Origin: Eukaryota sp. GEM-RC1
Lineage: Eukaryota
Reading direction: 5' to 3'
Length of the DNA stretch: 64,000 nucleotides
Assembly (NCBI GenBank): GCA_040285855.1
Contig: JAUFOQ010000013.1
Coordinates: 496,001 to 560,000, forward strand
Of this stretch, positions 14,873-63,182 are shown one piece after another (the first letter of the stretch is position 1; every line of letters begins with the position of its first letter). The notes below the pieces were generated by a model. That model did not search any database. It saw only the letters and a list, made by a program, of their open reading frames with translations, and was not told where the DNA came from. The position numbers and the translations under genes are program-made.

Positions 14873-15675
14873 TCATAGAATCAATCGCTTTAAAGTCGCG
14901 ATCTCTCCTGAACTCTCTACCATTGATTTTAACGACTGTTGTGTTTGACTGTTGATTGAGTTGTAATCTAGATTGATCGTAGAAACTGAAGAATTCACCT
15001 TCAAAGCTTCAGCAATTGCAATAGCTCCTTCAGGACCAATTGAGTTGTTACCTAGATCGATCGTAGAAACTGAAGAATTCACCTTCAAAGCTTCAGCAAT
15101 TGCAATAGCTCCTTCATTACCAATTGAGTTGTTATATAGATGGATCGTAGAAACTGAAGAATTCACCTTCAAAGCTTCAGCAATTGCAATAGCTCCTTCA
15201 TTACCAATTGAGTTTTCAGCTAGATAAATCTCAGAAACTGAAGAATTCACCTTCAAAGCTTCAGCAATTGCAATAGCTCCTTCATTACCAATTGAGTTGT
15301 TCCATAGATAAATCTCAGAAACTGAAGAATTCACCTTCAAAGCTTCAGCAATTGCAATAGCTCCTTCATTACCAATTGAGTTGTTATCTAGATAAATCGC
15401 AGAAACTGAAGAATTCACCTTCAAAGCTTCAGCAATTGCAATAGCTCCTTCATTACCAATTGAGTTGCCACCTAGATAAATCTCAGAAACTGAACAATTC
15501 ACCTTCAAAGCTTCAGCAATTGCAATAGCTCCTTCACTACCAATTGAATTGTGCCTTAGATAAATCGTAGAAACTGCAGAATTCACCTTCAAAGCTTCAG
15601 CAATTGCAATAGCTCCTTCAGGACCAATTGAGTTGTAATCTAGATTGATCGTAGAAACCTCATATTTCTCACCAT
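14873..15675 (-). pseudogene. LRR cassette, terminal unit of array 1; no in-frame ATG; unique C-terminus
   Basis: The open LRR frame begins at EVSTINLDYN. The ATG homologue is out of frame because of a 2-bp insertion (aaat-at-gag). It ends SLKSMVESSGEIATLKRLIL. Confidence 0.85.
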
Positions 15676-16005
15676 TTCATCTCAACAATTTTAATAATGA
15701 AACTGTACATTGGGAATTCGATGGTAAATGTATAGTAGAAATTACCAATTCTTCAGATACTAATGAAGTTCTGTTGTTGTTGTGAACAATAACAAAAGTA
15801 CCAGTAAATAACGTGTGTTATTCATTAGGGCAGTATTTAAAATCTGTACTTGAACATTTGCTAAACTACTATGATATTTGACTCTGTCACGGAGTTTTGT
15901 TTGGAATAATTTTTGGTCTGAGGAAAATGATTTTTCAAGTGTGTATTATACTCAACGATTAATTATGGTACTTTTGATGAGAGATTAATTATGATTAATG
16001 ACAAA

Positions 16006-16589
16006 ACTATATGTTTAAGGCTAATGGTTTTCATGGAAAAATTGAACCTTTACTTGCTAATCTTTCTGATCAGCCAAAAGTTGATAGAAGTCGTGGTGAT
16101 TTGATTGGTCCTTGGTTATCTTGTTAGGATATTATCATGGATTTCACGACTGTTGATCCTTGTAATTCAAGATCAATTTCCAAAATTTTTGATGATGATT
16201 TTTCTGCTCTTGAAGTGGCTGAAAAAGGAAAAAATACAAAGTACTGTCACTTAATTAACCAATTGAATGTTGACAGGTACAATTCTTTTGTGTTTCAACC
16301 TTTTGCGATGTCGATATATGGTAATATTGGACCAGCTGCACAAGGTTTTTTAACCTCCTTTGGTAAATTGTGTTCTGAGTATGGTAAAGTTTTTAATGAA
16401 AATTTTTGGTTGAGTAGGTTAACGTTTGCGTTGTTTCGTTCAATGCACAGACATTTTAATTCAATTTTAGGTAAGTTGTTCGGTGATGGACAGAAGGATC
16501 ATAGTTTAGATACTTTAGTTAGTGTCTGTTAGTTATTAACTTCTGCAAATGCATTTATTTCACTGATTGATCATAAACCCCGTTTTTTT
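16006..16589 (+). mobile_element. 5'-truncated RLE-type non-LTR retrotransposon fragment in cassette spacer (copy 1)
   Basis: EP..RGDL..DFTTVDP..AEKGKNTKY..FQPFAMSIYGNIGPAAQGFL..FW..RL.FAL.R. Flanked by an atgacaaa duplication that is single-copy in empty spacers. In-frame TAG. Confidence 0.8.
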
Positions 16590-16626
16590 ATGACAAATGT
16601 GATTTTTATATACAATGAAAACTTGT

Positions 16627-17489
16627 TTAAAAAGATATTCTATTTTTGTGTAGTGATTTTAACGACTGTTGTGTTTGACTGTTGATTGAGTTGTTATGTA
16701 GATAAATCGTAGAAACTGAAGAATTCACCTTCAAAGCTTCAGCAATTGCAATAGCTCCTTCACTACCAATTGAGTTGTTACCTAGAGAAATCGTAGAAAC
16801 TGAAGAATTCACCTTCAAAGCTTCAGCAATTGCAATAGCTCCTTCACTACCAATTGAGTTGTTACCTAGAGAAATCGTAGAAACTGAAGAATTCACCTTC
16901 AACGCTTCAGCAATTGCAATAGCTCCTTCACTACCAATTGAGTTGTTACCTAGAGAAATCGTAGAAACTGAAGAATTCACCTTCAACGCTTCAACAATTG
17001 CAATAGCTCCTTCATTACCAATTGAGTTGTCACCTAAACCAATCGTAGAAACTGAAGAATTCACCTTCAAAGCTTCAGCAATTGCAATAGCTCCTTCATT
17101 ACCAATTGAGTTGTTCCATAGATAAATCTCAGAAACTGAAGAATTCACCTTCAAAGCTTCAGCAATTGCAATAGCTCCTTCATTACCAATTGAGTTGTTA
17201 TCTAGATAAATCGCAGAAACTGAAGAATTCACCTTCAAAGCTTCAGCAATTGCAATAGCTCCTTCATTACCAATTGAGTTGCCACCTAGATAAATCTCAG
17301 AAACTGAACAATTCACCTTCAAAGCTTCAGCAATTGCAATAGCTCCTTCACTACCAATTGAATTGTGCCTTAGATAAATCGTAGAAACTGCAGAATTCAC
17401 CTTCAAAGCTTCAGCAATTGCAATAGCTCCTTCAGGACCAATTGAGTTGTAATCTAGATTGATCGTAGAAACCTCATATTTCTCACCAT
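16627..17489 (-). pseudogene. LRR cassette, no in-frame ATG, KNRISF end
   Basis: Open LRR frame (ORF track 259 aa from TTG); same 2-bp insertion at the 5' junction. Confidence 0.85.
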
Positions 17490-17819
17490 TTCATCTCAAC
17501 AATTTTAATAATGAAACTGTACATTGGGAATTCGATGGTAAATGTATAGTAGAAATTAACAATTCTTCAGATACTAATGAAGTTCTGTTGTTGTTGTGAA
17601 CAATAACAAAAGTACCAGTAAATAACGTGTGTTATTCATTAGGGCAGTATTTAAAATCTGTACTTGAACATTTGCTAAACTACTATGATATTTGACTCTG
17701 TCACGGAGTTTTGTTTGGAATAATTTTTGGTCTGAGGAAAATGATTTTTCAAGTGTGTATTATACTCAACGATTAATTATGGTACTTTTGATGAGAGATT
17801 AATTATGATTAATGACAAA

Positions 17820-18401
17820 ACTATATGTTTAAGGCTAATGGTTTTCATGGAAAAATTGAACCTTTACTTGCTAATCTTTCTGATCAGCCAAAAGTTGATA
17901 GAAGTCGTGGTGATTTGATTGGTCCTTGGTTATCTTGTTAGGAAATTATCGTGGATTTCACGACTGTTGATCCTTGTAATTCAAGATCAATTTCCAAAAT
18001 TTTTGATGATGATTTTTCTGCTCTTGAAGTGGCTGAAAAGGAAAAAATACAAAGTACTGTCACTTAATTAACCAATTGAATGTTGACAGGTACAATTCTT
18101 TTGTGTTTCAACCTTTTGCGATGTCGATATATGGTAATATTGGACCAGCTGCACAAGGTTTTTTAACCTCCTTTGGTAAATTGTGTTCTGAGTATGGTAA
18201 AGTTTTTAATGAAAATTTTTGGTTGAGTAGGTTAACGTTTGCGTTGTTTCGTTCAATGCACAGACATTTTAATTCAATTTTAGGTAAGTTGTTCGGTGAT
18301 GGACAGAAGGATCATAGTTTAGATACTTTAGTTAGTGTCTGTTAGTTATTAACTTCTGCAAATGCATTTATTTCACTGATTGATCATAAACCCCGTTTTT
18401 T
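17820..18401 (+). mobile_element. RLE retrotransposon fragment (copy 2)
   Basis: Near-identical to 16006-16589 with the same flanks. Confidence 0.8.
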
Positions 18402-18438
18402 ATGACAAATGTGATTTTTATATACAATGAAAACTTGT

Positions 18439-19553
18439 TTAAAAAGATATTCTATTTTTGTGTAGTGATTTTAACGACTGTTGTGTTTGACTGTTGATTG
18501 AGTTGTTATGTAGATAAATCGTAGAAACTGAAGAATTCACCTTCAAAGCTTCAGCAATTGCAATAGCTCCTTCAGGACCAATTGAATTGTTATATAGATA
18601 AATCTGAGAAACTGAAGAATTCACCTTCAAAGCTTCAGCAATTGCAATAGCTCCTTCACTACCAATTGAGTTGTTACCTAGAGAAATCGTAGAAACTGAA
18701 GAATTCACCTTCAAAGCTTCAGCAATTGCAATAGCTCCTTCACTACCAATTGAGTTGTTACCTAGAGAAATCGTAGAAACTGAAGAATTCACCTTCAACG
18801 CTTCAGCAATTGCAATAGCTCCTTCACTACCAATTGAGTTGTTACCTAGAGAAATCGTAGAAACTGAAGAATTCACCTTCAACGCTTCAACAATTGCAAT
18901 AGCTCCTTCATTACCAATTGAGTTGTCACCTAAACCAATCGTAGAAACTGAAGAATTCACCTTCAAAGCTTCAGCAATTGCAATAGCTCCTTCATTACCA
19001 ATTGAGTTGTTATATAGATAAATCTGAGAAACTGAAGAATTCACCTTCAAAGCTTCAGCAATTGCAATAGCACCTTCATTACCAATTGAGTTATTACCTA
19101 GATCGATCGTAGAAACTGAAGAATTCACCTTCAAAGCTTCAGCAATTACAATAGCTCCTTCATTACCAATTGAGTTGTTCCATAGATAAATCTCAGAAAC
19201 TGAAGAATTCACCTTCAAAGCTTCAGCAATTGCAATAGCTCCTTCATTACCAATTGAGTTGTTATCTAGATAAATCGCAGAAACTGAAGAATTCACCTTC
19301 AAAGCTTCAGCAATTGCAATAGCTCCTTCATTACCAATTGAGTTGCCACCTAGATAAATCTCAGAAACTGAACAATTCACCTTCAAAGCTTCAGCAATTG
19401 CAATAGCTCCTTCACTACCAATTGAATTGTGCCTTAGATAAATCGTAGAAACTGCAGAATTCACCTTCAAAGCTTCAGCAATTGCAATAGCTCCTTCAGG
19501 ACCAATTGAGTTGTAATCTAGATTGATCGTAGAAACCTCATATTTCTCACCAT
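18439..19553 (-). pseudogene. LRR cassette, no in-frame ATG, KNRISF end
   Basis: Open LRR frame (343 aa from TTG). Confidence 0.85.
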
Positions 19554-19883
19554 TTCATCTCAACAATTTTAATAATGAAACTGTACATTGGGAATTCGAT
19601 GGTAAATGTATAGTAGAAATTAACAATTCTTCAGATACTAATGAAGTTCTGTTGTTGTTGTGAACAATAACAAAAGTACCAGTAAATAACGTGTGTTATT
19701 CATTAGGGCAGTATTTAAAATCTGTACTTGAACATTTGCTAAACTACTATGATATTTGACTCTGTCACGGAGTTTTGTTTGGAATAATTTTTGGTCTGAG
19801 GAAAATGATTTTTCAAGTGTGTATTATACTCAACGATTAATTATGGTACTTTTGATGAGAGATTAATTATGATTAATGACAAA

Positions 19884-20467
19884 ACTATATGTTTAAGGCT
19901 AATGGTTTTCATGGAAAAATTGAACCTTTACTTGCTAATCTTTCTGATCAGCCAAAAGTTGATAGAAGTCGTGGTGATTTGATTGGTCCTTGGTTATCTT
20001 GTTAGGAAATTATCATGGATTTCACGACTGTTGATCCTTGTAATTCAAGATCAATTTCCAAAATTTTTGATGATGATTTTTCTGCTCTTGAAGTGGCTGA
20101 AAAAGGAAAAAATACAAAGTACTGTCACTTAATTAACCAATTGAATGTTGACAGGTACAATTCTTTTGTGTTTCAACCTTTTGCGATGTCGATATATGGT
20201 AATATTGGACCAGCTGCACAAGGTTTTTTAACCTCCTTTGGTAAATTGTGTTCTGAGTATGGTAAAGTTTTTAATGAAAATTTTTGGTTGAGTAGGTTAA
20301 CGTTTGCGTTGTTTCGTTCAATGCACAGACATTTTAATTCAATTTTAGGTAAATTGTTCGGTGATGGACAGAAGGATCATAGTTTAGATACTTTAGTTAG
20401 TGTCTGTTAGTTATTAACTTCTGCAAATGCATTTATTTCACTGATTGATCATAAACCCCGTTTTTTT
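19884..20467 (+). mobile_element. RLE retrotransposon fragment (copy 3)
   Basis: Near-identical to 16006-16589 with the same flanks. Confidence 0.8.
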
Positions 20468-20504
20468 ATGACAAATGTGATTTTTATATACAATGAAAAC
20501 TTGT

Positions 20505-21451
20505 TTAAAAAGATATTCTATTTTTGTGTAGTGATTTTAACGACTGTTGTGTTTGACTGTTGATTGAGTTGTTATGTAGATAAATCGTAGAAACTGAAGA
20601 ATTCACCTTCAAAGCTTCAGCAATTGCAATAGCTCCTTCACTACCAATTGAGTTGTTACCTAGAGAAATCGTAGAAACTGAAGAATTCACCTTCAAAGCT
20701 TCAGCAATTGCAATAGCTCCTTCACTACCAATTGAGTTGTTACCTAGAGAAATCGTAGAAACTGAAGAATTCACCTTCAACGCTTCAGCAATTGCAATAG
20801 CTCCTTCACTACCAATTGAGTTGTTACCTAGAGAAATCGTAGAAACTGAAGAATTCACCTTCAACGCTTCAACAATTGCAATAGCTCCTTCATTACCAAT
20901 TGAGTTGTCACCTAAACCAATCGTAGAAACTGAAGAATTCACCTTCAAAGCTTCAGCAATTGCAATAGCTCCTTCATTACCAATTGAGTTGTCACCTAAA
21001 CCAATCGTAGAAACTGAAGAATTCACCTTCAAAGCTTCAGCAATTGCAATAGCTCCTTCATTACCAATTGAGTTTTCAGCTAGATAAATCTCAGAAACTG
21101 AAGAATTCACCTTCAAAGCTTCAGCAATTGCAATAGCTCCTTCATTACAAATTGAGTTGTTCCATAGATAAATCTCAGAAACTGAAGAATTCACCTTCAA
21201 AGCTTCAGCAATTGCAATAGCTCCTTCATTACCAATTGAGTTGTTATCTAGATAAATCGCAGAAACTGAACAATTCACCTTCAAAGCTTCAGCAATTGCA
21301 ATAGCTCCTTCACTACCAATTGAATTGTGCCTTAGATAAATCGTAGAAACTGCAGAATTCACCTTCAAAGCTTCAGCAATTGCAATAGCTCCTTCAGGAC
21401 CAATTGAGTTGTAATCTAGATTGATCGTAGAAACCTCATATTTCTCACCAT
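20505..21451 (-). pseudogene. LRR cassette, no in-frame ATG, KNRISF end
   Basis: Open LRR frame (287 aa from TTG). Confidence 0.85.
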
Positions 21452-21781
21452 TTCATCTCAACAATTTTAATAATGAAACTGTACATTGGGAATTCGATGG
21501 TAAATGTATAGTAGAAATTAACAATTCTTCAGATACTAATGAAGTTCTGTTGTTGTTGTGAACAATAACAAAAGTACCAGTAAATAACGTGTGTTATTCA
21601 TTAGGGCAGTATTTAAAATCTGTACTTGAACATTTGCTAAACTACTATGATATTTGACTCTGTCACGGAGTTTTGTTTGGAATAATTTTTGGTCTGAGGA
21701 AAATGATTTTTCAAGTGTGTATTATACTCAACGATTAATTATGGTACTTTTGATGAGAGATTAATTATGATTAATGACAAA

Positions 21782-22366
21782 ACTATATGTTTAAGGCTAA
21801 TGGTTTTCATGGAAAAATTGAACCTTTACTTGCTAATCTTTCTGATCAGCCAAAAGTTGATAGAAGTCGTGGTGATTTGATTGGTCCTTGGTTATCTTGT
21901 TAGGGAAATTATCGTGGATTTCACGACTGTTGATCCTTGTAATTCAAGATCAATTTCCAAAATTTTTGATGATGATTTTTCTGCTCTTGAAGTGGCTGAA
22001 AAAGGAAAAAATACAAAGTACTGTCACTTAATTAACCAATTGAATGTTGACAGGTACAATTCTTTTGTGTTTCAACCTTTTGCGATGTCGATATATGGTA
22101 ATATTGGACCAGCTGCACAAGGTTTTTTAACCTCCTTTGGTAAATTGTGTTCTGAGTATGGTAAAGTTTTTAATGAAAATTTTTGGTTGAGTAGGTTAAC
22201 GTTTGCGTTGTTTTGTTCAATGCACAGACATTTTAATTCAATTTTAGGTAAGTTGTTCGGTGATGGACAGAAGGATCATAGTTTAGATACTTTAGTTAGT
22301 GTCTGTTAGTTATTAACTTCTGCAAATGCATTTATTTCACTGATTGATCATAAACCCCGTTTTTTT
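21782..22366 (+). mobile_element. RLE retrotransposon fragment (copy 4)
   Basis: Near-identical to 16006-16589 with the same flanks. Confidence 0.8.
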
Positions 22367-22403
22367 ATGACAAATGTGATTTTTATATACAATGAAAACT
22401 TGT

Positions 22404-22825
22404 TTAAAAAGATATTCTATTTTTGTGTAGTGATTTTAACGACTGTTGTGTTTGACTGTTGATTGAGTTGTTATGTAGATAAATCGTAGAAACTGAAGAA
22501 TTCACCTTCAAAGCTTCAGCAATTGCAATAGCTCCTTCACTACCAATTGAGTTGTTACCTAGAGAAATCGTAGAAACTGAAGCAATTGCAATAGCTCCTT
22601 CATTACCAATTGAGTTTTCAGCTAGATAAATCTCAGAAACTGAAGAATTCACCTTCAAAGCTTCAGCAATTGCAATAGCTCCTTCATTACCAATTGAGGT
22701 GTTTTCTAGATAAATCTGAGAAACTGAAGAATTCACCTTCAAAGCTTCAGCGATTGCAATAGCTCCTTCATTACCAATTGAGTTGTAATCTAGATTGATC
22801 GTAGAAACCTCATATTTCTCACCAT
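22404..22825 (-). pseudogene. Short LRR cassette with an in-frame internal deletion
   Basis: ..EGAIAIA-SVSTISLGNN.. lacks EALKVNS; KNRISF end. Confidence 0.85.
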
Positions 22826-22993
22826 TTCATCTCAACAATTTTAATAATGAAACTGTACATTGGGAATTCGATGGTAAATGTATAGTAGAAATTAACAATT
22901 CTTCAGATACTAATAAAGTTCTGTTGTTGTTGTGAACAATAACAAAAGTACCAGTAAATAACGTGTGTTATTCATTAGGGCAGTATTTAAAAT

Positions 22994-23209
22994 TTGAGTT
23001 GTTATCTAGATGGATCGTAGAAACTGAAGAATTCACCTTCAAAGCTTCAGCAATTGCAATAGCTCCTTCATTACCAATTGAGTTGTTATATAGATAAATC
23101 TCAGAAACTGAAGAATTCACCTTCAAAGCTTCAGCAATTGCAATAGCTCCTTCATTACCAATTGAGTTGTAATCTAGATTGATCGTAGAAACCTCATATT
23201 TCTCACCAT
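22994..23209 (-). pseudogene. 3'-truncated LRR cassette immediately downstream of the TRIM-LRR gene
   Basis: Two and a half repeats are fused directly to mid-spacer sequence (cagtatttaaaat|ttgagttg); no C-cap. Confidence 0.85.
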
Positions 23210-23568
23210 TTCATCTCAACAATTTTAATAATGAAACTGTACATTGGGAATTCGATGGTAAATGTATAGTAGAAATTAACAATTCTTCAGATACTAATAA
23301 AGTTCTGTTGTTGTTGTGAACAATAACAAAAGTACCAGTAAATAACGTGTGTTATTCATTAGGGCAGTATTTAAAATCTGTACTTGAACATCTGCTAAAC
23401 TACTATGATATTTGACTCTGTCACGGAGTTTTGTTTGGGATAATGTTTGTTCTGAGCAAAATGATTTTTCAAGTGTGTATTATATTCACCGATTAATTAT
23501 GGGACTTTTGATGAGAAATTAATTATGATTAATGACAAATGTGATTTTTATATACAATGAAAACTTGT

Positions 23569-25356
23569 TTAAAAATCCATTCTATTTTTGTGTAGTGATT
23601 TTAACGACTGTTGTGTTTGACTGTTGATTGAGTTGTTATATAGATAAATCTGAGAAACTGAAGCATTCACCTTCAGAGCTTCAGCAATTGCAATAGCTCC
23701 TTCATTACCAATTGAGTTTGCAGCTAGATAAATCTCAGAAACTGAAGAATTCACCTTCAAAGCTTCAGCAATTGCAATAGCTCCTTCATTACCAATTGAG
23801 TTGTTTCCTAGATAAATCGTAGAAACTGAAGAATTCACCTTCAAAGCTTCAGCAATTGCAATAGCTCCTTCATTACCAATTGAGTTGTCCCATAGATAAA
23901 TCTCAGAAACTGAAGAATTCACCTTCAAAGATTCAGCAATTGCAATTGCTCCTTCAGGACCAATTGAGTTGTTATATAGATTGATCGTAGAAACTGAAGA
24001 ATTCACCTTCAAAGCTTCAGCAATTGCAATAGCTCCTTCAGGACCAATTGAGTTGTTTTGTAGATTGATCGTAGAAACTGAAGAATTCACCTTCAAAGCT
24101 TCAGCAATTGCAATAGCTCCTTCATTACCAATTGAGTTGTCCCATAGATAAATCTCAGAAACTGAAGAATTCACCTTCAAAGATTCAGCAATTGCAATTG
24201 CTCCTTCAGGACCAATTGAGTTGTTATATAGATTGATCGTAGAAACTGAAGAATTCACCTTCAAAGCTTCAGCAATTGCAATAGCTCCTTCATTACCAAT
24301 TGAGTTGTTATCTAGATAAATCGTAGAAACCTCATTTCTCACCATTTCATCATAACAATTCTTCAACTTCGAACTAAGCTCGTTCCAATCAATAACAAGC
24401 TCCTTCTCTTCAACTTGTTGTACAGGACAAACACTTGTAATAGACTTGATTGGTGAAGGAGTGTCATCTAGAAGCCTAGCAGAAGCAACATTGGACTCCG
24501 AAACAACGGAAAGAGAGGCCAAACGACGAGAAGCTTCGGAGTGGATAGAGCAAAGTTCTTCATTTAAAGAGGAAATGATAGCAGATTGGTTGTTAAGTAG
24601 GGTGGAAGTTGTGGTAATGAAGTTTTCGCCGATCTTTGGTTTAAAGATAACAGGCTTACCTGATTTTAAGTCATTCATGATGGTAACAGAGTCTAACATA
24701 GTTTCTTGCAGCATATCAGTTAGAGTTTCTTTCATTTGAGCAAATCCAGATGCCGCTTGTTGGAGAGCATTTTCTGTACACTTTCCGACGGTTTCTACAG
24801 CAACGGCTAGTTCTTGATTGATGGCATTAATGCCATGTTCTACAGCAGATCTTCCTTCGTCAAACGGAAGCAAATTCTTCTTGTGCTGGTCGTGGTCCCC
24901 AAGGATAGCACAAATTGAGCAAAGCGCAACAGAACAAGAAGTACAGAAGAGGTCAAAGGATTTGGACGGATGGATCGGACATTTAGGCACAATGGAGGCG
25001 TGTTTCTTTTGCAGCGGAATTGCAACGTGGGTACGTAAGAGTTTCGGCCGATGAATGTCCTTAAAACATTGGTCGCATAAATCAGCGTCACATTCTGCGC
25101 AATAACAAGTGGCAACAGCTTCATCACACTCAATACAAATAGACTCACCCTGACCAGCAACGAAGGCTTCAACAGCTTCTTTCAACTTGTAGTTAGGACA
25201 CAGCCTTGACTTGTCCACTTCAGCTCTACAAATTGGACATCCGTCATGAGAAACAAGCCACTCCTGTAAATCCGACATACAAAAGGTGTGGCCACACCAA
25301 GTAGTTACCGGATTCTTGAGAATTTCATGACATATATCACATAGATAGTGAGACAT
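23569..25356 (-). CDS. TRIM-like E3 ubiquitin ligase: RING, B-box, B-box, coiled coil, then 8 RI/NLRC3-like 28-aa LRRs plus cap (595 aa)
   Basis: RING CDIC..CGHTFCMSD..CPIC; B-box CIEC..CYCAEC..LCDQC..H..H; B-box CPIH..LFCTSC..LCSIC..H..H; helical linker; repeats of LKVNSSVSxIxLxxNSIGxEGAIAIAEA. Uninterrupted ORF with ATG. Confidence 0.92.
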   Translation of the reverse strand: MSHYLCDICHEILKNPVTTWCGHTFCMSDLQEWLVSHDGCPICRAEVDKSRLCPNYKLKEAVEAFVAGQGESICIECDEAVATCYCAECDADLCDQCFKDIHRPKLLRTHVAIPLQKKHASIVPKCPIHPSKSFDLFCTSCSVALCSICAILGDHDQHKKNLLPFDEGRSAVEHGINAINQELAVAVETVGKCTENALQQAASGFAQMKETLTDMLQETMLDSVTIMNDLKSGKPVIFKPKIGENFITTTSTLLNNQSAIISSLNEELCSIHSEASRRLASLSVVSESNVASARLLDDTPSPIKSITSVCPVQQVEEKELVIDWNELSSKLKNCYDEMVRNEVSTIYLDNNSIGNEGAIAIAEALKVNSSVSTINLYNNSIGPEGAIAIAESLKVNSSVSEIYLWDNSIGNEGAIAIAEALKVNSSVSTINLQNNSIGPEGAIAIAEALKVNSSVSTINLYNNSIGPEGAIAIAESLKVNSSVSEIYLWDNSIGNEGAIAIAEALKVNSSVSTIYLGNNSIGNEGAIAIAEALKVNSSVSEIYLAANSIGNEGAIAIAEALKVNASVSQIYLYNNSINSQTQQSLKSLHKNRMDF

Positions 25357-30408: not shown

Positions 30409-30438
30409 TAAACTAACAGATGAACAAATTTTAATTTT

Positions 30439-34829: not shown

Positions 34830-34867
34830 ACTAGAAGGCAACAAGGTTCAAGACATGTAAATCGATA

Positions 34868-51041: not shown

Positions 51042-51770
51042 TTAAAAAGAGATTCTATTTTTGTGTAGTGATTTTAACGACTGCTGTGTTTGACTGTTGA
51101 TTGAGTTGTTACCTAGATCGATCGCAGAAACTGAAGAATTCACCTTCAAAGCTTCAGCAATTGCAATAGCTCCTTCATTACCAATTGAGTTGTTTCCTAG
51201 ATTGATCTTAGAAACTGAAGAATTCACCTTCAAAGCTTCAGCAATCGCAATAGCTCCTTCATTACCAATTGAGTTGTTATATAGATTGATCGTAGAAACT
51301 GAAGAATTCACCTTCAAAGCTTCAGCAATGGCAATAGCTCCTTCAGGACCAATTGAGTTGTAACCTAGATAAATCGTAGTAACTGAAGAATTCACCTTCA
51401 ACGCTTCAGCAATTGCAATAGCTCCTTCACTACCAATTGAGTTGTTACCTAGAGAAATCGTAGAAACTGAAGAATTCACCTTCAACGCTTCAGCAATTGC
51501 AATAGCTCCTTCACTACCAATTGAGTTGTTACCTAGAGAAATCGTAGAAACTGAAGAATTCACCTTCAACGCTTCAGCAATTGCAATAGCTCCTTCATTA
51601 CCAATTAAGTTGTTATATAGATTGATCTTAGAAACTGAAGAATTCACCTTCAAAGCTTCAGCAATCGCAATAGCTCCTTCATTACCAATTGAGTTGTTAT
51701 ATAGATAAATCGCAGAAACTGAAGAATTCACCCTTTCATCCTCAACAATTTTAATAATGAAACTGTACAT
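51042..51770 (-). CDS. LRR-only cassette ORF, 242 aa
   Basis: MYSFIIKIVEDERVNSS..KNRISF. Confidence 0.7.
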   Translation of the reverse strand: MYSFIIKIVEDERVNSSVSAIYLYNNSIGNEGAIAIAEALKVNSSVSKINLYNNLIGNEGAIAIAEALKVNSSVSTISLGNNSIGSEGAIAIAEALKVNSSVSTISLGNNSIGSEGAIAIAEALKVNSSVTTIYLGYNSIGPEGAIAIAEALKVNSSVSTINLYNNSIGNEGAIAIAEALKVNSSVSKINLGNNSIGNEGAIAIAEALKVNSSVSAIDLGNNSINSQTQQSLKSLHKNRISF

Positions 51771-52094
51771 TTGTAATTCGATGGTCAGTGTACAGTATAA
51801 ATTAACAATATTTCAGATACTAATAAATTTCTGTTGTTGTTGAGAACAATAGGAAAAGTAGCAGTAAATAATGTGTGTTAGTCACCAGGGTATTACTTAA
51901 AATCTGTACTTGAACATCTGCTAAACTAGTATGATATTTGACTCTGTCACGGAGTTTTGTTTGGGATAATGGTTGTTCTGAGCTAAATGATTTTTCAAGT
52001 GTGCATTACATTCACAGTTTAATTATGGTGCTTTTGATGAGAAATTAATTATGATTAATGGAAAATGTGATTTTTATATGTAATGAAAACTTGT

Positions 52095-53687: not shown

Positions 53688-54046
53688 TTCGTCTCAACAA
53701 TTTTAATAATGAAACTGTACATTGGTAATTCGATGGTAAATGTACGGTATCATTTAATAATATTTCAGATACTAATAAATTTCTGTTGCTGTTGAGAACA
53801 ATAGCAAAAGTACCAGTAAATAACGTGTGTTATTCACCAGGGTAGTATTTAAAATCTGTACTTGAACATCTGCTAAACTACTATGATATTTCACTCTGTC
53901 ACGGAGTTTTGTTTGGGATAATGATTGTTCTGAGCTAAAGGATTTTTCAAGTGTGTATTATATTGACCGATTAATTATGGTACTTTTGATGAGAAATTAA
54001 TTATGATTAATGACAAATGTGATTTTTATATACAATGAAAACTTGT

Positions 54047-54741
54047 TTAAAAATACTTTCTATTTTTGTGTAGTGATTTTAACGACTGTTGTGTTTGACT
54101 GTTGATTGAGTTGTTACCTAGAAAAATCGTAGAAACTGAAGAATTCACCTTCAAAGCTTCAGCAATCGCAATAGCTCCTTCATTACCAATTGAGTTTTCA
54201 GCTAGATAAATCTCAGAAACTGAAGAATTCACCTTCAAAGCTTCAGCAATTGCAATAGCTCCTTCATTACCAATTGAGTTGGTCCATAGATTGATCGTAG
54301 AAACTGAAGAATTCACCTTCAAAGCTTCAGCAATTGCAATAGCTCCTTCATTACCAATTGAGTTGTAATCTAGATCGATCCTAGAAACTGAGGAATTCAC
54401 CTTCAAAGCTTCAGCAATTGCAATAGCTCCTTCAGGACCAATTGAGTTGGTCCATAGATTGATCGTAGAAACTGAAGAATTCACCTTCAAAGATTCAGCA
54501 ATTGCAATAGCTCCTTCAGGACCAATTGAGTTGTTATCTAGATGGATCGTAGAAACTGAAGAATTCACCTTCAAAGCTTCAGCAATTGCAATAGCTCCTT
54601 CATTACCAATTGAGTTGTTATATAGATAAATCTCAGAAACTGAAGAATTCACCTTCAAAGCTTCAGCAATTGCAATAGCTCCTTCATTACCAATTGAGTT
54701 GTAATCTAGATTGATCGTAGAAACCTCATATTTCTCACCAT
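54047..54741 (-). pseudogene. LRR cassette of array-1 type, no in-frame ATG
   Basis: Carries the aaat-at-gag 2-bp insertion; KNRKYF end. Confidence 0.8.
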
Positions 54742-55101
54742 TTCATCTCAACAATTTTAATAATGAAACTGTACATTGGGAATTCGATGGTAAATGTATA
54801 GTAGAAATTAACAATTCTTCAGATACTAATAAAGTTCTGTTGTTGTTGTGAACAATAACAAAAGTACCAGTAAATAACGTGTGTTATTCATTAGGGCAGT
54901 ATTTAAAATCTGTACTTGAACATCTGCTAAACTACTATGATATTTGACTCTGTCACGGAGTTTTGTTTGGGATAATGTTTGTTCTGAGCAAAATGATTTT
55001 TCAAGTGTGTATTATATTCACCGATTAATTATGGGACTTTTGATGAGAAATTAATTATGATTAATGACAAATGTTATTTTTTATATACAATGAAAACTTG
55101 T

Positions 55102-55878
55102 TTAAAAATCCATTCTATTTTTGTGTAGTGATTTTAACGACTGTTGTGTTTGACTGTTGATTGAGTTGTTATCTAGAAAAATCGTAGAAACTGAAGAATT
55201 CACCTTCAAAGCTTCAGCAATCGCAATAGCTCCTTCATTACCAATTGAGTTGTTACATAGATAAATCTGAGAAACTGAAGCATTCACCTTCAAAGCTTCA
55301 GCAATTGCAAAAGCTCCTTCATTACCAATTGAGTTGGTCCATAGATTGATCGTAGAAACTGAAGAATTCACCTTCAAAGATTCAGCAATTGCAATAGCTC
55401 CTTCAGGACCAATTGAGTTGTTATCTAGATGGATCGTAGAAACTGAAGAATTCACCTTCAAAGCTTCAGCAATTGCAATAGCTCCTTCATTACCAATTGA
55501 GTTGTTATATAGATAAATCTCAGAAACTGAAGAATTCACCTTCAAAGCTTCAGCAATTGCAATAGCTCCTTCATTACCAATTGAGTTGGTACATAGATTG
55601 ATCGTAGAAACTGAAGAATTGACCTTCAAAGATTCAGCAATTGCAATAGCTCCTTCAGTACCAATTGAGTTGTTAAATAGATAAATCTTAGAAACTGAAG
55701 AATTCACCTTCAAAGCTTCAGCAATTGCAATAGCTCCTTCATTACCAATTGAGTTGTTATATAGATAAATCGTAGAAACTGAAGAATTCACCTTCAAAGC
55801 TTCAGCCATTGCAATAGCTCATTCAGTACCAATTGAGTTGTTATATAGATTGATCGTAGAACTCTCATTTCTCAACAT
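55102..55878 (-). pseudogene. Chimeric LRR cassette with a nonsense codon in the first repeat and a TRIM1-type KNRMDF end
   Basis: GGA>TGA at about 55820; the downstream frame is open for 235 aa. Confidence 0.8.
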
Positions 55879-56237
55879 TTCGTCTCAACAATTTTAATAA
55901 TGAAACTGTACATTGGTAATTCGATGGTAAATGTACGGTATCATTTAACAATATTTCAGATACTAATAAATTTCTGTTGCTGTTGAGAACAATAGCAAAA
56001 GTACCAGTAAATAACGTGTGTTATTCACCAGGGTAGTATTTAAAATCTGTACTTGAACATCTGCTAAACTACTATGATATTTCACTCTGTCACGGAGTTT
56101 TGTTTGGGATAATGATTGTTCTGAGCTAAAGGATTTTTCAAGTGTGTATTATATTCACCGATTAATTATGGTACTTTTGATGAGAAATTAATTATGATTA
56201 ATGACAAATGTGATTTTTATATACAATGAAAACTTGT

Positions 56238-56876
56238 TTAAAAATACATTCTATTTTTGTGTAGTGATTCTAACGACTGTTGTGTTTGACTGTTGATTGA
56301 GTTGTTACCTAGATCGATCGCAGAAACTGAAGAATTCACCTTCAAAGCTTCAGCAATTGCAATAGCTCCTTCAACACCAATTGAGTTGTAATCTAGATTG
56401 ATCTTAGAAACTGAAGAATTCACCTTCAACGCTTCAGCAATTGCAATAGCTCCTTCAACACCAATTGAGTTGAAACCTAGATTGATCTTAGAAACTGAAG
56501 AATTTACCTTCAAAGCTTCAGCAATTGCAATAGCTCCTTCAGTACCAATTGAGTTGTTAAATAGATAAATCGTAGAAACTGAAGAATTCACCTTCAAAGC
56601 TTCAGCAATTGCAATAGCTCCTTCAGTACCAATTGAGTTCGCAATAGCTCCTTCAGGACCAATTGAGTTGTTATCTAGAAAAATCGTAGAAACTGAAGAA
56701 TTCACCTTCAAAGCTTCAGCAATTGCAATAGCTCCTTCATTACCAATTGAGTTGTTATATAGATAAATCGTAGAAACTGAAGAATTCACCTTCAAAGCTT
56801 CAGCCATTGCAATAGCTCCTTCAGTACCAATTGAGTTGTTATATAGATTGATCGTAGAACTCTCATTTCTCAACAT
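56238..56876 (-). CDS. LRR-only cassette ORF, 212 aa
   Basis: Intact. Confidence 0.7.
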   Translation of the reverse strand: MLRNESSTINLYNNSIGTEGAIAMAEALKVNSSVSTIYLYNNSIGNEGAIAIAEALKVNSSVSTIFLDNNSIGPEGAIANSIGTEGAIAIAEALKVNSSVSTIYLFNNSIGTEGAIAIAEALKVNSSVSKINLGFNSIGVEGAIAIAEALKVNSSVSKINLDYNSIGVEGAIAIAEALKVNSSVSAIDLGNNSINSQTQQSLESLHKNRMYF

Positions 56877-57234
56877 TTCGTCTCAACAATTTTAATAATG
56901 AAACTGTACATTGGTAATTCGATGGTAAATGTACGGTATCATTTAACAATATTTCAGATACTAATAAATTTCTGTTGCTGTTGAGAACAATAGCAAAGTA
57001 CCAGTAAATAACGTGTGTTATTCACCAGGGTAGTATTTAAAATCTGTACTTGAACATCTGCTAAACTACTATGATATTTCACTCTGTCACGGAGTTTTGT
57101 TTGGGATAATGATTGTTCTGAGCTAAAGGATTTTTCAAGTGTGTATTATATTCACCGATTAATTATGGTACTTTTGATGAGAAATTAATTATGATTAATG
57201 ACAAATGTGATTTTTATATACAATGAAAACTTGT

Positions 57235-57873
57235 TTAAAAATACATTCTATTTTTGTGTAGTGATTTTAACGACTGTTGTGTTTGACTGTTGATTGAGTT
57301 GTTACCTAGATCGATCGCAGAAACTGAAGAATTCACCTTCAAAGCTTCAGCAATTGCAATAGCTCCTTCAACACCAATTGAGTTGTAATCTAGATTGATC
57401 TTAGAAACTGAAGAATTCACCTTCAACGCTTCAGCAATTGCAATAGCTCCTTCAACACCAATTGAGTTGAAACCTAGATTGATCTTAGAAACTGAAGAAT
57501 TTACCTTCAAAGCTTCAGCAATTGCAATAGCTCCTTCAGTACCAATTGAGTTGTTAAATAGATAAATCGTAGAAACTGAAGAATTCACCTTCAAAGCTTC
57601 AGCAATTGCAATAGCTCCTTCAGTACCAATTGAGTTCGCAATAGCTCCTTCAGGACCAATTGAGTTGTTATCTAGAAAAATCGTAGAAACTGAAGAATTC
57701 ACCTTCAAAGCTTCAGCAATCGCAATAGCTCCTTCAGGACCAATTGAGTTGTTATCTAGATAAATCGTAGAAACTGAAGAATTCACCTTCAAAGCTTCAG
57801 CCATTGCAATAGCTCCTTCATTACCAATTGAGTTGTTATATAGATTGATCGTAGAACTCTCATTTCTCAACAT
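57235..57873 (-). CDS. LRR-only cassette ORF, 212 aa
   Basis: Intact. Confidence 0.7.
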   Translation of the reverse strand: MLRNESSTINLYNNSIGNEGAIAMAEALKVNSSVSTIYLDNNSIGPEGAIAIAEALKVNSSVSTIFLDNNSIGPEGAIANSIGTEGAIAIAEALKVNSSVSTIYLFNNSIGTEGAIAIAEALKVNSSVSKINLGFNSIGVEGAIAIAEALKVNSSVSKINLDYNSIGVEGAIAIAEALKVNSSVSAIDLGNNSINSQTQQSLKSLHKNRMYF

Positions 57874-58231
57874 TTCGTCTCAACAATTTTAATAATGAAA
57901 CTGTACATTGGTAATTCGATGGTAAATGTACGGTATCATTTAACAATATTTCAGATACTAATAAATTTCTGTTGCTGTTGAGAACAATAGCAAAGTACCA
58001 GTAAATAACGTGTGTTATTCACCAGGGTAGTATTTAAAATCTGTACTTGAACATCTGCTAAACTACTATGATATTTCACTCTGTAACGGAGTTTTGTTTG
58101 GGATAATGATTGTTCCGAGCTAAAGGATTTTTCAAGTGTGTATTATATTCACCGATTAATTATGGTACTTTTGATGAGAAATTAATTATGATTAATGACA
58201 AATGTGATTTTTATATACAATGAAAACTTGT

Positions 58232-59404
58232 TTAAAAATACATTCTATTTTTGTGTAGTGATTTTAACGACTGTTGTGTTTGACTGTTGATTGAGTTGTT
58301 ACCTAGATCGATCGCAGAAACTGAAGAATTCACCTTCAACGCTTCAGCAATTGCAATAGCTCCTTCAACACCAATTGAGTTGTAATCTAGATTGATCTTA
58401 GAAACTGAAGAATTCACCTTCAACGCTTCAGCAATTGCAATAGCTCCTTCAACACCAATTGAGTTGAAACCTAGATTGATCTTAGAAACTGAAGAATTTA
58501 CCTTCAAAGCTTCAGCAATTGCAATAGCTCCTTCAGTACCAATTGAGTTGTTAAATAGATAAATCGCAGAAACTGAAGAATTCACCTTCAAAGCTTCAGC
58601 AATTGCAATAGCTCCTTCAGTACCAATTGAGTTCGCAATAGCTCCTTCAGGACCAATTGAGTTGATATCTAGAAAAATCGTAGAAACTGAAGAATTCACC
58701 TTCAAAGCTTCAGCAATCGCAATAGCTCCTTCAGGACCAATTGAGTTCGCAATAGCTCCTTCAGGACCAATTGAGTTGATATCTAGAAAAATCGTAGAAA
58801 CTGAAGAATTCACCTTCAAAGCTTCAGCAATCGCAATAGCTCCTTCAGGACCAATTGAGTTGTTATCAAGAAAAATCGTAGAAACTGAAGAATTCACCTT
58901 CAAAGCTTCAGCAATCGCAATAGCTTCTTCAACACCAATTGAGTTGAAACCTAGATAAATCTCAGAAACTGAAGAATTCACCTTCAAAGATTCAGCAATT
59001 GCAATAGCTCCTTCATTACCAATTGAGTTGTTCCTTAGATCGATCGTAGAAACTGAAGAATTCACCTTCAAAGATTCAGCAATTGTAATAGCTCCTTCAG
59101 GACCAATTGAGTTGTTATCTAGATAAATCTCAGAAACTGAAGAATTCACCTTCAAAGCTTCAGCAATTGCAATAGCTCCTTCATTACCAATTGAGTTGTT
59201 TCCTAGATAAATCTCAGAAACTGAAGAATTCACCTTCAAAGCTTCAGCAATCGCAATAGCTCCTTCAGGACCAATTGAGTTGTTATCTAGATAAATCGTA
59301 GAAACTGAAGAATTCACCTTCAAAGCTTCAGCCATTGCAATAGCTCCTTCATTACCAATTGAGTTGTTATATAGATTGATCGTAGAACTCTCATTTCTCA
59401 ACAT
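58232..59404 (-). CDS. LRR-only cassette ORF, 390 aa
   Basis: Intact. Confidence 0.7.
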   Translation of the reverse strand: MLRNESSTINLYNNSIGNEGAIAMAEALKVNSSVSTIYLDNNSIGPEGAIAIAEALKVNSSVSEIYLGNNSIGNEGAIAIAEALKVNSSVSEIYLDNNSIGPEGAITIAESLKVNSSVSTIDLRNNSIGNEGAIAIAESLKVNSSVSEIYLGFNSIGVEEAIAIAEALKVNSSVSTIFLDNNSIGPEGAIAIAEALKVNSSVSTIFLDINSIGPEGAIANSIGPEGAIAIAEALKVNSSVSTIFLDINSIGPEGAIANSIGTEGAIAIAEALKVNSSVSAIYLFNNSIGTEGAIAIAEALKVNSSVSKINLGFNSIGVEGAIAIAEALKVNSSVSKINLDYNSIGVEGAIAIAEALKVNSSVSAIDLGNNSINSQTQQSLKSLHKNRMYF

Positions 59405-59763
59405 TTCGTCTCAACAATTTTAATAATGAAACTGTACATTGGTAATTCGATGGTAAATGTACGGTATCATTTAACAATATTTCAGATACTAATAAATTTC
59501 TGTTGCTGTTGAGAACAATAGCAAAAGTACCAGTAAATAACGTGTGTTATTCACCAGGGTAGTATTTAAAATCTGTACTTGAACATCTGCTAAACTACTA
59601 TGATATTTCACTCTGTAACGGAGTTTTGTTTGGGATAATGATTGTTCCGAGCTAAAGGATTTTTCAAGTGTGTATTATATTCACCGATTAATTATGGTAC
59701 TTTTGATGAGAAATTAATTATGATTAATGACAAATGTGATTTTTATATACAATGAAAACTTGT

Positions 59764-60204
59764 TTAAAAATACATTCTATTTTTGTGTAGTGATTTTAAC
59801 GACTGTTGTGTTTGACTGTTGATTGAGTTGTTACCTAGATCGATCGCAGAAACTGAAGAATTCACCTTCAACACTTCAGCAATTGCAATAGCTCCTTCAA
59901 CACCAATTGAGTTGTAATCTAGATTGATCTTAGAAACTGAAGAATTCACCTTCAACGCTTCAGCAATTGCAATAGCTCCTTCAACACCAATTGAGTTGAA
60001 ACCTAGATTGATCTTAGAAACTGAAGAATTTACCTTCAAAGCTTCAGCAATTGCAATAGCTCCTTCAGTACCAATTGAGTTGTTAAATAGATAAATCGCA
60101 GAAACTGAAGAATTCACCTTCAAAGCTTCAGCAATTGCAATAGCTCCTTCATTACCAATTGAGTTGTTATATAGATTGATCGTAGAACTCTCATTTCTCA
60201 ACAT
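59764..60204 (-). CDS. LRR-only cassette ORF, 146 aa
   Basis: Intact. Confidence 0.7.
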   Translation of the reverse strand: MLRNESSTINLYNNSIGNEGAIAIAEALKVNSSVSAIYLFNNSIGTEGAIAIAEALKVNSSVSKINLGFNSIGVEGAIAIAEALKVNSSVSKINLDYNSIGVEGAIAIAEVLKVNSSVSAIDLGNNSINSQTQQSLKSLHKNRMYF

Positions 60205-60563
60205 TTCGTCTCAACAATTTTAATAATGAAACTGTACATTGGTAATTCGATGGTAAATGTACGGTATCATTTAACAATATTTCAGATACTAATAAATTTC
60301 TGTTGCTGTTGAGAACAATAGCAAAAGTACCAGTAAATAACGTGTGTTATTCACCAGGGTAGTATTTAAAATCTGTACTTGAACATCTGCTAAACTACTA
60401 TGATATTTCACTCTGTAACGGAGTTTTGTTTGGGATAATGATTGTTCCGAGCTAAAGGATTTTTCAAGTGTGTATTATATTCACCGATTAATTATGGTAC
60501 TTTTGATGAGAAATTAATTATGATTAATGACAAATGTGATTTTTATATACAATGAAAACTTGT

Positions 60564-61511
60564 TTAAAAATACATTCTATTTTTGTGTAGTGATTTTAAC
60601 GACTGTTGTGTTTGACTGTTGATTGAGTTGTTACCTAGATCGATCGCAGAAACTGAAGAATTCACCTTCAACACTTCAGCAATTGCAATAGCTCCTTCAA
60701 CACCAATTGAGTTGTAATCTAGATTGATCTTAGAAACTGAAGAATTCACCTTCAACGCTTCAGCAATTGCAATAGCTCCTTCAACACCAATTGAGTTGAA
60801 ACCTAGATTGATCTTAGAAACTGAAGAATTTACCTTCAAAGCTTCAGCAATTGCAATAGCTCCTTCAGTACCAATTGAGTTGTTAAATAGATAAATCGCA
60901 GAAACTGAAGAATTCACCTTCAAAGCTTCAGCAATTGCAATAGCTCCTTCAGTACCAATTGAGTTCGCAATAGCTCCTTCAGGACCAATTGAGTTGATAT
61001 CTAGAAAAATCGTAGAAACTGAAGAATTCACCTTCAAAGCTTCAGCAATCGCAATAGCTCCTTCAGGACCAATTGAGTTCGCAATAGCTCCTTCAGGACC
61101 AATTGAGTTCGCAATAGCTCCTTCAGGACCAATTGAGTTGATATCTAGAAAAATCGTAGAAACTGAAGAATTCACCTTCAAAGCTTCAGCAATCGCAATA
61201 GCTCCTTCAGGACCAATTGAGTTGTTATCAAGAAAAATCGTAGAAACTGAAGAATTCACCTTCAAAGCTTCAGCAATCGCAATAGCTTCTTCAACACCAA
61301 TTGAGTTGAAACCTAGATAAATCTCAGAAACTGAAGAATTCACCTTCAAAGATTCAGCAATTGCAATAGCTCCTTCATTACCAATTGAGTTGTTCCTTAG
61401 ATCGATCGTAGAAACTGAAGAATTCACCTTCAAAGATTCAGCAATTGCAATAGCTCCTTCAGGACCAATTGAGTTGTTATCTAGATAAATCGTAGAAACC
61501 TCATTTCTCAC
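60564..61511 (-). pseudogene. LRR cassette, open frame of 315 codons but no ATG
   Basis: 5' end reads TGA GAT GAA AGG GTG AGA AAT GAG (ATG>AGG). Confidence 0.8.
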
Positions 61512-61872
61512 CCTTTCATCTCAACAATGTCAATAATGAAACTGTACATTGGTAATTCGATGGTAAATGTATAGTAGAAATTAACAATACTTCAGATACT
61601 AATAAATTTCTGTTGCTGTTGAGAACAATAGCAAAGTACCAGTAAATAACGTGTGTTATTCACCAGGGTAGTATTTAAAATCTGTACTTGAACATCTGCT
61701 AAACTACTATGATATTTCACTCTGTCACGGAGTTTTGTTTGGGATAATGATTGTTCTGAGCTAAAGGATTTTTCAAGTGTGTATTATATTCACCGATTAA
61801 TTATGGTACTTTTGATGAGAAATTAATTATGATTAATGACAAATGTGATTTTTATATACAATGAAAACTTGT

Positions 61873-62820
61873 TTAAAAATACATTCTATTTTTGTGCAGT
61901 GATTTTAACGTCTGTTGTGTTTGACTGTTGATTGAGTTGTTACCTAGATCGATCGCAGAAACTGAAGAATTCACCTTCAACGCTTCAGCAATTGCAATAG
62001 CTCCTTCAACACCAATTGAGTTGTAATCTAGATTGATCTTAGAAACTGAAGAATTCACCTTCAACGCTTCAGCAATTGAAATAGCTCCTTCAACACCAAT
62101 TGAGTTGAAACCTAGATTGATCTTAGAAACTGAAGAATTTACCTTCAAAGCTTCAGCAATTGCAATAGCTCCTTCAGTACCAATTGAGTTGTTAAATAGA
62201 TAAATCGTAGAAACTGAAGAATTCACCTTCAAAGCTTCAGCAATTGCAATAGCTCCTTCAGTACCAATTGAGTTCGCAATAGCTCCTTCAGGACCAATTG
62301 AGTTGTTATCTAGAAAAATCGTAGAAACTGAAGAATTCACCTTCAAAGCTTCAGCAATCGCAATAGCTCCTTCAGGACCAATTGAGTTCGCAATAGCTCC
62401 TTCAGGACCAATTGAGTTCGCAATAGCTCCTTCAGGACCAATTGAGTTGATATCTAGAAAAATCGTAGAAACTGAAGAATTCACCTTCAAAGCTTCAGCA
62501 ATCGCAATAGCTCCTTCAGGACCAATTGAGTTGTTATCAAGAAAAATCGTAGAAACTGAAGAATTCACCTTCAAAGCTTCAGCAATCGCAATAGCTTCTT
62601 CAACACCAATTGAGTTGAAACCTAGATAAATCTCAGAAACTGAAGAATTCACCTTCAAAGATTCAGCAATTGCAATAGCTCCTTCATTACCAATTGAGTT
62701 GTTCCTTAGATCGATCGTAGAAACTGAAGAATTCACCTTCAAAGATTCAGCAATTGCAATAGCTCCTTCAGGACCAATTGAGTTGTTATCTAGATAAATC
62801 GTAGAAACCTCATTTCTCAC
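61873..62820 (-). pseudogene. LRR cassette, open frame of 315 codons but no ATG
   Basis: Same 5' end as 60564-61511; 1309-bp period. Confidence 0.8.
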
Positions 62821-63182
62821 CCTTTCATCTCAACAATGTCAATAATGAAACTGTACATTGGTAATTCGATGGTAAATGTATAGTAGAAATTAACAATACT
62901 TCAGATACTAATAAATTTCTGTTGCTGTTGAGAACAATAGCAAAAGTACCAGTAAATAACGTGTGTTATTCACCAGGGTAGTATTTAAAATCTGTACTTG
63001 AACATCTGCTAAACTACTATGATATTTCACTCTGTAACGGAGTTTTGTTTGGGATAATGATTGTTCCGAGCTAAAGGATTTTTCAAGTGTGTATTATATT
63101 CACCGATTAATTATGGTACTTTTGATGAGAAATTAATTATGATTAATGACAAATGTGATTTTTATATACAATGAAAACTTGT

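Follow-up and report, generated by a model that had tools for sequence, protein, structure and literature searches.

Does a tandem array of truncated gene copies lying beside a complete gene amount to a dedicated donor system for that gene? The question is raised by a 64,000-nucleotide stretch of Eukaryota sp. GEM-RC1 (assembly GCA_040285855.1, contig JAUFOQ010000013.1, positions 496,001 to 560,000; hereafter the window), in which an intact gene for a TRIM-like protein with a leucine-rich repeat (LRR) end is accompanied by 31 head-to-tail, minus-strand copies of that end, here called cassettes. An original prediction, made from the DNA letters, held that all cassettes begin at one fixed breakpoint with a short homology arm, that many cannot be translated alone yet keep open LRR frames, and that these are the expected features of silent donor cassettes. 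Here, on balance and only just, we favour the reading that the cassettes are copies of the TRIM LRR end and its 3' flank which form a passive pool of modules swapped by ordinary recombination. The locus would then probably be an unprogrammed store of spare binding-surface modules, as opposed to a purpose-built cassette-switching system.

All relevant genes of the locus lie on the minus strand, and its main parts are the following (window positions):

23569..25353 (-), intact TRIM-like gene, 594 aa, from the list of open reading frames (ORFs) and Pfam (RING, two zf-B_box stretches, LRR_6)
23225..23568 (-), 344-bp 3' flank of the TRIM gene, found again as the spacer of every repeat unit
14925..23224 (-), array 1, six cassettes, all with an inserted AT and none with an in-frame ATG
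22997-23224 (-), array-1 cassette, truncated
22404-22840 (-), array-1 cassette
20505-21466 (-), array-1 cassette
18439-19568 (-), array-1 cassette
16627-17504 (-), array-1 cassette
about 14925-15690 (-), array-1 cassette, the last unit, 3'-truncated
35806..62838 (-), array 2, 25 cassettes (17 of MLRN type, 2 of MYSF type, 5 with ATG>AGG, 1 with inserted AT)
63183..63819 (-), second head, a 5'-truncated TRIM copy without RING or B-box, with four LRR strands and its own breakpoint (95.8% over 265 bp)
63837..63999 (-), flank copy (91% to 34868-35032) joined to the second head, a higher-order duplication junction

The intact gene encodes a RING domain (Pfam, residues 5-42), two B-box zinc fingers (a B-box-like stretch at 73-110 and a B-box at 123-158), a linker with a coiled coil predicted from its sequence and its position after the B-boxes, an N-cap helix, nine LRR strands of the ribonuclease-inhibitor (RI)-like kind and a C-cap. 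The RING-then-B-box order is typical of TRIM/RBCC proteins; Pfam gives RING, B-box and LRR only, with neither NACHT nor NB-ARC in this gene. When the LRR domain was modelled alone (pLDDT 96), it formed nine strand-helix repeats between an N-cap helix and a C-cap, and it resembles the LRRs of NOD2 and ribonuclease inhibitor (structure match, TM up to 0.89). We predict for the protein a role as an E3 ligase that would select its targets, possibly foreign intracellular proteins, through the LRR.

The intact gene is followed by array 1, which has its orientation, and the second head by array 2. A repeat unit opens with a short arm, continues with 1 to 18 LRR strands encoded in 84-bp modules up to the usual stop, and closes with a 344-bp spacer. 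The locus thus shares with silent-cassette systems the presence of several truncated units that match the variable portion of a complete gene. The spacers are 90-99% identical to the TRIM 3' flank, which fits recent duplication, the alternative that the original prediction had itself allowed, and between near-identical neighbours there are 0-6 bp of difference. All spacers measure 343-345 bp although their substitution divergence reaches 12%, which reflects either a very low indel rate or a constraint on length. The spacer was rejected as coding DNA, having no long frame in any of the six frames. The flank copy at the second head (63837-64000) is cut by the end of the window, which suggests a further TRIM or array unit upstream.

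The common start of the cassettes was confirmed in 31 of 31, and the TRIM and cassette sequences quoted for it were correct. At this junction the 11-mer AAAATTGTTGA stands in 28 units, with one or two changes in the other three, and a search of both strands of the window returned these 28 matches and one more:

35333..35343 (-), the one copy of the 11-mer AAAATTGTTGA outside the cassettes, in unique flank 120 bp beyond the final spacer

The 11-mer arises in 61 of 20,000 dinucleotide shuffles of the 594-bp flank, in a post hoc test, and flank and gene both have AATTGTT at the junction. The TGA that replaces a Tyr codon of the gene is, judging by these matches, probably flank DNA and not a silencing mutation. 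Read-through of this TGA as a code change was rejected, as the TRIM ORF uses TGG for Trp and the TGA sits upstream of the ATG. A start shared by all units is far beyond chance, but it is one inherited event and not 31 independent ones: since every repeat unit ends in the gene's own flank, unequal crossing-over that starts from a single duplication yields an array with the same junction throughout. In the LRR model the breakpoint of the cassettes lies within the N-cap helix (helix 12-22). It is fixed for the repeat unit and not for the locus, since the second head has a different breakpoint and the LRR sequence of units 37947 and 36269 restarts at a second internal junction. Other breakpoints are suggested by the partial database paralogs P0121, P0123, P0124 and P0020, which are possibly gene-model errors.

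The homology arm, as an element maintained in the cassettes, did not hold up.

24325..24351 (-), 27-bp gene-derived arm (DEMVRNEVS)

No cassette (0/31) has an arm identical to TRIM, so that the locus lacks the identical junction or homology element by which silent cassettes match their expressed gene; the arm is the part of the unit least like the gene. Mean divergence over the 27 gene-derived bp is 11.6%, compared with 1.5% from the gene consensus for the module framework (189 modules) and 4.6-5.8% for spacers; nine units carry frame-shifting arm insertions (AT in seven, G in two), and allele density in the arm (8/27) matches that of the spacer (79/344, P = 0.48). Recombination would more easily use the LRR framework than the arm.

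Many units were said to be untranslatable alone, which applies to the 12 of 31 that have no in-frame ATG; the other 19 keep one, namely, as predicted, the MLRN type (17 units) and the MYSF type (2 units). Seven of the 12 have the ATG put out of frame by the inserted AT, exactly as described (all six units of array 1, and 54047-54756 in array 2). The remaining five have ATG>AGG: the three previously listed (35806, 60564 and 61873) together with 37947-38396 and 36269-36718. Both MYSF units also carry the AGG. Among the 19 ATG-bearing units one has a nonsense codon, the early stop correctly noted in the unit at 55102, and three share a frameshifting deletion, which leaves 15 of 31 units with an ORF running from the in-frame ATG to the normal stop (146-530 aa). 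The longest open frame of an ATG-less unit spans 371 codons (18442-19554), in agreement with the figure of about 370. Openness is not uniform, given frameshifts, spacer stops, truncations and nonsense; of the 12 ATG-less units two hold spacer DNA with stops, two are truncated, one is a single LRR and seven are open.

40676-43037 (-), 19-bp frameshifting deletion in three units
35806-35925 (-), unit with a single LRR
55819..55821 (-), GGA>TGA in unit 55102-55893, the only nonsense codon in a cassette LRR module

Variation among the modules falls mostly at codons 17, 19, 21, 22 and 27 of 28, four of which are on or just after the beta strand; codons 17, 19, 21 and 22 we take to be the exposed positions of the LxxLxLxxN strand, with strand positions from the model. 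Between them the five codons show 39 amino-acid states against just 2 synonymous variants (simple counts, not a codon model), and they account for 10 of the 21 cassette-only residues (P = 0.002). Across 248 cassette modules there are 49 distinct strand motifs, 4 of which are found in eight related proteins or the second head. The repeats are more than 80% identical and vary in number from unit to unit, so that the high internal conservation and the few hypervariable, nonsynonymously varying binding-surface codons of repeat-based sensors are both seen here. Such a pattern needs protein-level selection, which implies that the modules have passed through expressed genes or that some cassettes are expressed. 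Shuffling extends to a fine scale, with ten cycles among 29 combinations of codons 19 and 21, and one long tract links the gene to the distant array:

54526..55172 (-), tract of ~646 bp nearly identical to 22994-23639 at the TRIM 3' end (spacer 99.4%)

The tract comprises the last 71 coding bp, the spacer and the first 231 bp of the next cassette, and by its sequence it apparently records that the TRIM 3' end and array 2, some 31 kb apart, exchanged DNA recently. Rare alleles are common to the intact gene and unit 55102, and to the second head and unit 51042.

Mutagenesis of the kind made by diversity-generating retroelements was considered and rejected: the variable codons fit NNT/NNC/NNG, but synonymous-site framework adenines are mostly invariant. 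No reverse transcriptase domain was found in the window ORFs scanned, and no recombinase or deaminase, AID/APOBEC included, was recognised among the 25 window ORFs scanned.

It had been proposed that the donor reading would fall if ATG-less cassettes took up stops and frameshifts at the neutral rate, and on this point the results divide. A single nonsense allele was observed, with 0.8-1.6 expected under neutrality. Over 30 cassette-only alleles the framework omega is 0.41 (P = 0.014), a value that older alleles inherited from selected genes would also give; young framework alleles (in three units or fewer; hand count) stand at 13 nonsynonymous or stop to 6 synonymous (P = 0.28). Framework alleles confined to ATG-less units number 7 nonsynonymous to 4 synonymous (P = 0.25), and those confined to ATG-bearing units 7 nonsynonymous plus 1 stop to 4 synonymous (P = 0.31). 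The 60-bp non-repetitive tail has 14 alleles (0.23 per site, spacer-like), 11 nonsynonymous to 3 synonymous against a neutral 10.0:3.3, in a count that includes the two heads; the last codons also vary among genes. The suggested comparison of indels was run as well. Small deletions in the LRR body are in frame in 4 of 5 cases (P = 0.045), or 4 of 7 with the arm included (P = 0.17), a weak signal; the 31 spacers, with 79 minor alleles and only two gap columns, both in homopolymers, give no neutral baseline, and small indels are rare throughout. An in-frame 54-bp deletion that breaks the LRR has reached 19 modules of 13 units and is in none of the eight related proteins compared, and four structural lesions run across the boundary between LRR and spacer or flank.

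In the reading that we prefer, one accidental duplication guided by microhomology would have started the array by joining the flank (AAAATTGTTGA) to the gene at their common AATTGTT, with the loss of 120 bp of flank, and unequal crossing-over would have amplified the units. Frames would stay open since the 84-bp modules homogenise and small indels are rare, and selection on binding-surface residues would act while the modules sit in expressed TRIM-LRR genes. With array 1 following the gene in direct orientation and the frameworks ~98.5% identical, the gene could gain new LRR combinations by crossover or conversion, for which the arm would not be needed. The breakpoint, the arm and the open frames are mostly explained by descent from one duplication with no programmed mechanism. 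As signs of silent donors they do not discriminate, tandem descent and neutrality giving the same outcome; a looser form of the donor idea is supported by the selection signatures and by the exchange between TRIM heads and cassettes, evidence that the original prediction had not cited.

Several observations weigh against this reading. No gene module is identical to any cassette module (0/8 in the intact gene, 0/3 in the second head; the nearest differ by 1-3 bp), and the gene sample is incomplete and protein-only. For the 646-bp tract, transfer out of the gene locus and into array 2 is the more parsimonious direction, and flow from cassette to gene is something that we infer from sequence patterns. 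The 120-bp gap in the junction model requires a second step. Some data lean towards stronger selection on the cassettes, namely the share of small body deletions in frame, the placing of both arm indels and of the AGG change, all of which disturb the start within a stretch of about 30 bp, and the absence of 45 of the 49 strand motifs from known genes. Allele counts are moreover not independent events, and all P values are approximate.

If nothing were ever given back, the modules would have been captured from past or present TRIM-LRR alleles into a dead-end pseudogene array, as the neutral tail, arm and young alleles, the spread of the LRR-breaking 54-bp deletion to 13 units, the four structural lesions and the lack of any gene module equal to a cassette module might suggest. 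We consider this rather unlikely: there would seem to be no obvious one-way bar to recombination between 98.5%-identical direct repeats, cassettes exceed the intact gene 31 to 1 in the window, and exchange tracts are present. The opposite extreme is a dedicated silent-donor system, in which selected, untranslatable, in-frame cassettes are copied into TRIM at a high or programmed rate, in the manner of vlsE, msp2, msg-I or VLR. The tandem 5'-truncated units adjoining a complete gene recall such systems, and the wealth of strand motifs, the enrichment of cassette-only residues at binding codons, the overall omega, the in-frame body deletions and the clustering of start-disabling changes in the arm all speak for it. 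A system of this kind is nevertheless unlikely here, with an arm degenerate in 31/31 units, a TGA that is likely junction DNA upstream of the ATG, an in-frame ATG kept in 19/31 units and no significant constraint on alleles found only in ATG-less units. Nor does a single expression site seem likely, with at least four full-length TRIM-LRR paralogs (P0001, P0122, P0002 and P0004); the 25-unit array follows a head without RING and B-boxes, and the scanned ORFs yielded no recombinase or deaminase. Doubtful to the same degree is the bolder picture of a free-living protist with a cassette-fed, VLR-like repertoire of intracellular receptors, in which gene conversion from selected, silent tandem cassettes would rewrite the LRR binding face of TRIM E3 ligases so as to track viral or bacterial proteins.

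The MLRN and MYSF units might instead be expressed as free LRR proteins, acting as decoys or competitors, with the other 12-13 units dead. Uninterrupted ORFs in 15/31 units, a GAGGTT>GAGAGT change that preserves the MLRN frame and a framework omega below 1 are what one would expect of this. It appears quite unlikely, as the model places the start of MLRN ORFs where the N-cap helix ends, the module broken by the 54-bp deletion is present in 10 of the 15 full ORFs, an upstream short ORF overlaps the ATG, and alleles found only in ATG-bearing units show no significant constraint; a search with an MLRN cassette gave 17 proteins at E ≤ 1e-60, none above 78% identity, a weak test given repeat-masked gene models. 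Splicing of cassettes, as alternative last exons, to the RING/B-box part is very improbable. In the 22/31 units of the MLRN and AGG types, the AG before AT-GAA-ATG has phase 1 and leads into an open frame; phase 1 is likewise found at each of the three donor-like GT sites of the TRIM 5' part, one of which is CAG/GTAAG at 24659. The acceptor would, however, be GAG and not YAG, the six units that follow the intact gene all have the AG in phase 2 with a stop, splicing would cost about 103 codons with the N-cap among them, and a full 3' flank precedes each unit. Least probable of all is an array that is largely an assembly artefact. Spacer homopolymer-length differences (T3/T4 in 8/31, scattered over the tree) and frame switches at homopolymers in a neighbouring kelch gene hint at read errors, from which the tree-like relations of the units, spacer divergence of up to 12% and codon-structured variation clearly differ; doubt is limited to the copy number of near-identical units (0-1 differences).

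The closest named proteins to the TRIM gene are labelled Eukaryota sp. GEM-RC1, which from its name we take to be the Skoliomonas sp. GEMRC of 10.1101/2023.05.03.539051, a free-living metamonad; according to that source, repeats had been masked before genes were predicted for the named paralogs. RING/B-box relatives occur in TZLM1-RC too, and they are expanded among GEM-RC1 and TZLM1-RC proteins (10/10 clusters looked up). LRRs, searched for with a home-built profile, were present in only 4 of 155 proteins (the best 150 of 6171 matches plus five cluster members), all from GEM-RC1; as far as those 6171 matches go, the TRIM-LRR form seems to be lineage-specific. Paralog P0122 reads through into the same 344-bp flank and has linker variants in common with the second head. 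The 236-aa paralog P0121 consists of the RING/B-box half only, and its match ends exactly at CAG/GTAAG (24659 in the window gene). P0137-P0147 are expanded RING/B-box proteins from two labelled isolates with other, non-LRR C-terminal domains; their sequences would allow an independent TRIM-like radiation in metamonads as a possibility. A metagenome scan with the RING/B-box alignment gave, among 266 pattern matches, four distant loci at 35-43% identity.

Four array-1 spacers have inherited a single insertion, together with its target-site duplication, a trace, like the small differences between neighbouring units, of array growth by unequal crossing-over.

16014-16598, 17828-18410, 19892-20476 and 21790-22375 (+), four copies of the spacer insertion, 590-593 bp, with an 8-bp target-site duplication

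This is likely a 5'-truncated retrotransposon of the non-LTR kind (one lacking long terminal repeats), judging by the target-site duplication and by a motif in its ORF that we take to be that of an RLE endonuclease; the ORF has no match in Pfam or PDB. Older copies of the ORF lie at 7738-8165 (+) and 34380-34571 (-), with 68% and 45% amino-acid identity, and together they likely represent a family of such elements. The array copies end in a T run, not an A run, on the ORF strand.

Elsewhere in the window we observed the following:

30442-33739 (-), Kelch-repeat, cysteine-rich, probable transmembrane gene in six ORF pieces, with five frame switches by homopolymers that are likely long-read undercalls (alternatives: pseudogene, ribosomal frameshifting)
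985-2590 (+), Sina-type RING ORF, then a 390-codon ORF in another frame without a Pfam match, whose motif GGAV...DIDFF resembles, we presume, that of a nucleotidyltransferase
3940-4120 (+), solitary short LRR remnant; its C-cap is related, and a 5' part is not visible
420-737 (-), hAT dimerisation-domain fragment (Pfam)
11502-13733 (-), several ORFs of 100-180 codons without Pfam matches, past the point where array 1 is cut off, which may be a decayed transposon

At this locus a TRIM-type ligase scaffold is coupled to a hypervariable LRR sensor, with about 250 LRR modules stored in truncated tandem copies. Even a passive pool of this kind shows how one accidental duplication could give rise to a silent-cassette system, and with it the question whether free-living protists diversify intracellular immune receptors can be put to a culturable organism. 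In a literature search, with most subscription journals outside its coverage, neither a protist TRIM-LRR nor an array of this type turned up in any paper. The scaffold itself is that of TRIM/RBCC ligases (PMC2533329, PMC5758549), with RING, two B-boxes, a probable coiled coil and a C-terminal target-binding domain. The tripartite motif has been called metazoan-specific (PMC2533329), and one TRIM37 ortholog is given for Dictyostelium (PMC5758549). The available text of these two sources does not mention an LRR end for TRIMs ("leucine" occurs 0 times in that of PMC2533329).

Several known systems, as described in the accessible parts of the papers cited, resemble the locus in one respect and differ in another. 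Silent cassettes stand contiguously beside a complete gene in Borrelia vlsE and Anaplasma msp2 (PMC4534519) and in Mycoplasma synoviae vlhA (PMC2825196), where variable segments likewise sit within conserved frameworks. Those genes encode pathogen surface antigens with demonstrated one-way conversion into a single site, whereas here the protein is predicted to be intracellular and any switching is conjectural. The likeness to vlsE and msp2 is one of layout alone. Promoter- or start-less copies that open with a short (33-bp) homology are found in Pneumocystis msg-I (PMC5676039), but there the CRJE keeps complete identity over its 33 bp with a single expression site, in contrast to 0/31 identical arms, nine units with frame-shifting insertions and several complete paralogs here. 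Lamprey VLR (PMC3308329) is alike in its variable-residue LRR modules, in cassettes flanking the gene and in patchwork within single modules. It is assembled somatically from an incomplete germline gene, with cytidine deaminases and cassettes of 1-3 modules; here there is a complete 594-aa gene, each cassette comprises a whole 3' end together with its stop and flank, and the LRRs are RI-like. Young Tetrahymena LRR genes (PMC6564038) are a further case of clonal LRR expansion in a protist by unequal crossing-over, also with a non-LTR retrotransposon beside the units, but they have 90-bp exons with phase-2 introns in place of intron-free 84-bp modules. By analogy, the locus would work most like the repeat domains of fungal NLRs (Podospora het-d/het-e, NWD; PMC12222747), which share near-identical repeats under concerted evolution by unequal crossing-over, hypervariable interaction-surface codons, variation in repeat number, occasional exchange between paralogs and pseudogenes in the family. 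Those repeats are WD40 on NACHT, whereas here RI-like LRRs follow RING and B-boxes, and the spare repeats sit in a 31-unit tandem array of truncated 3' ends.

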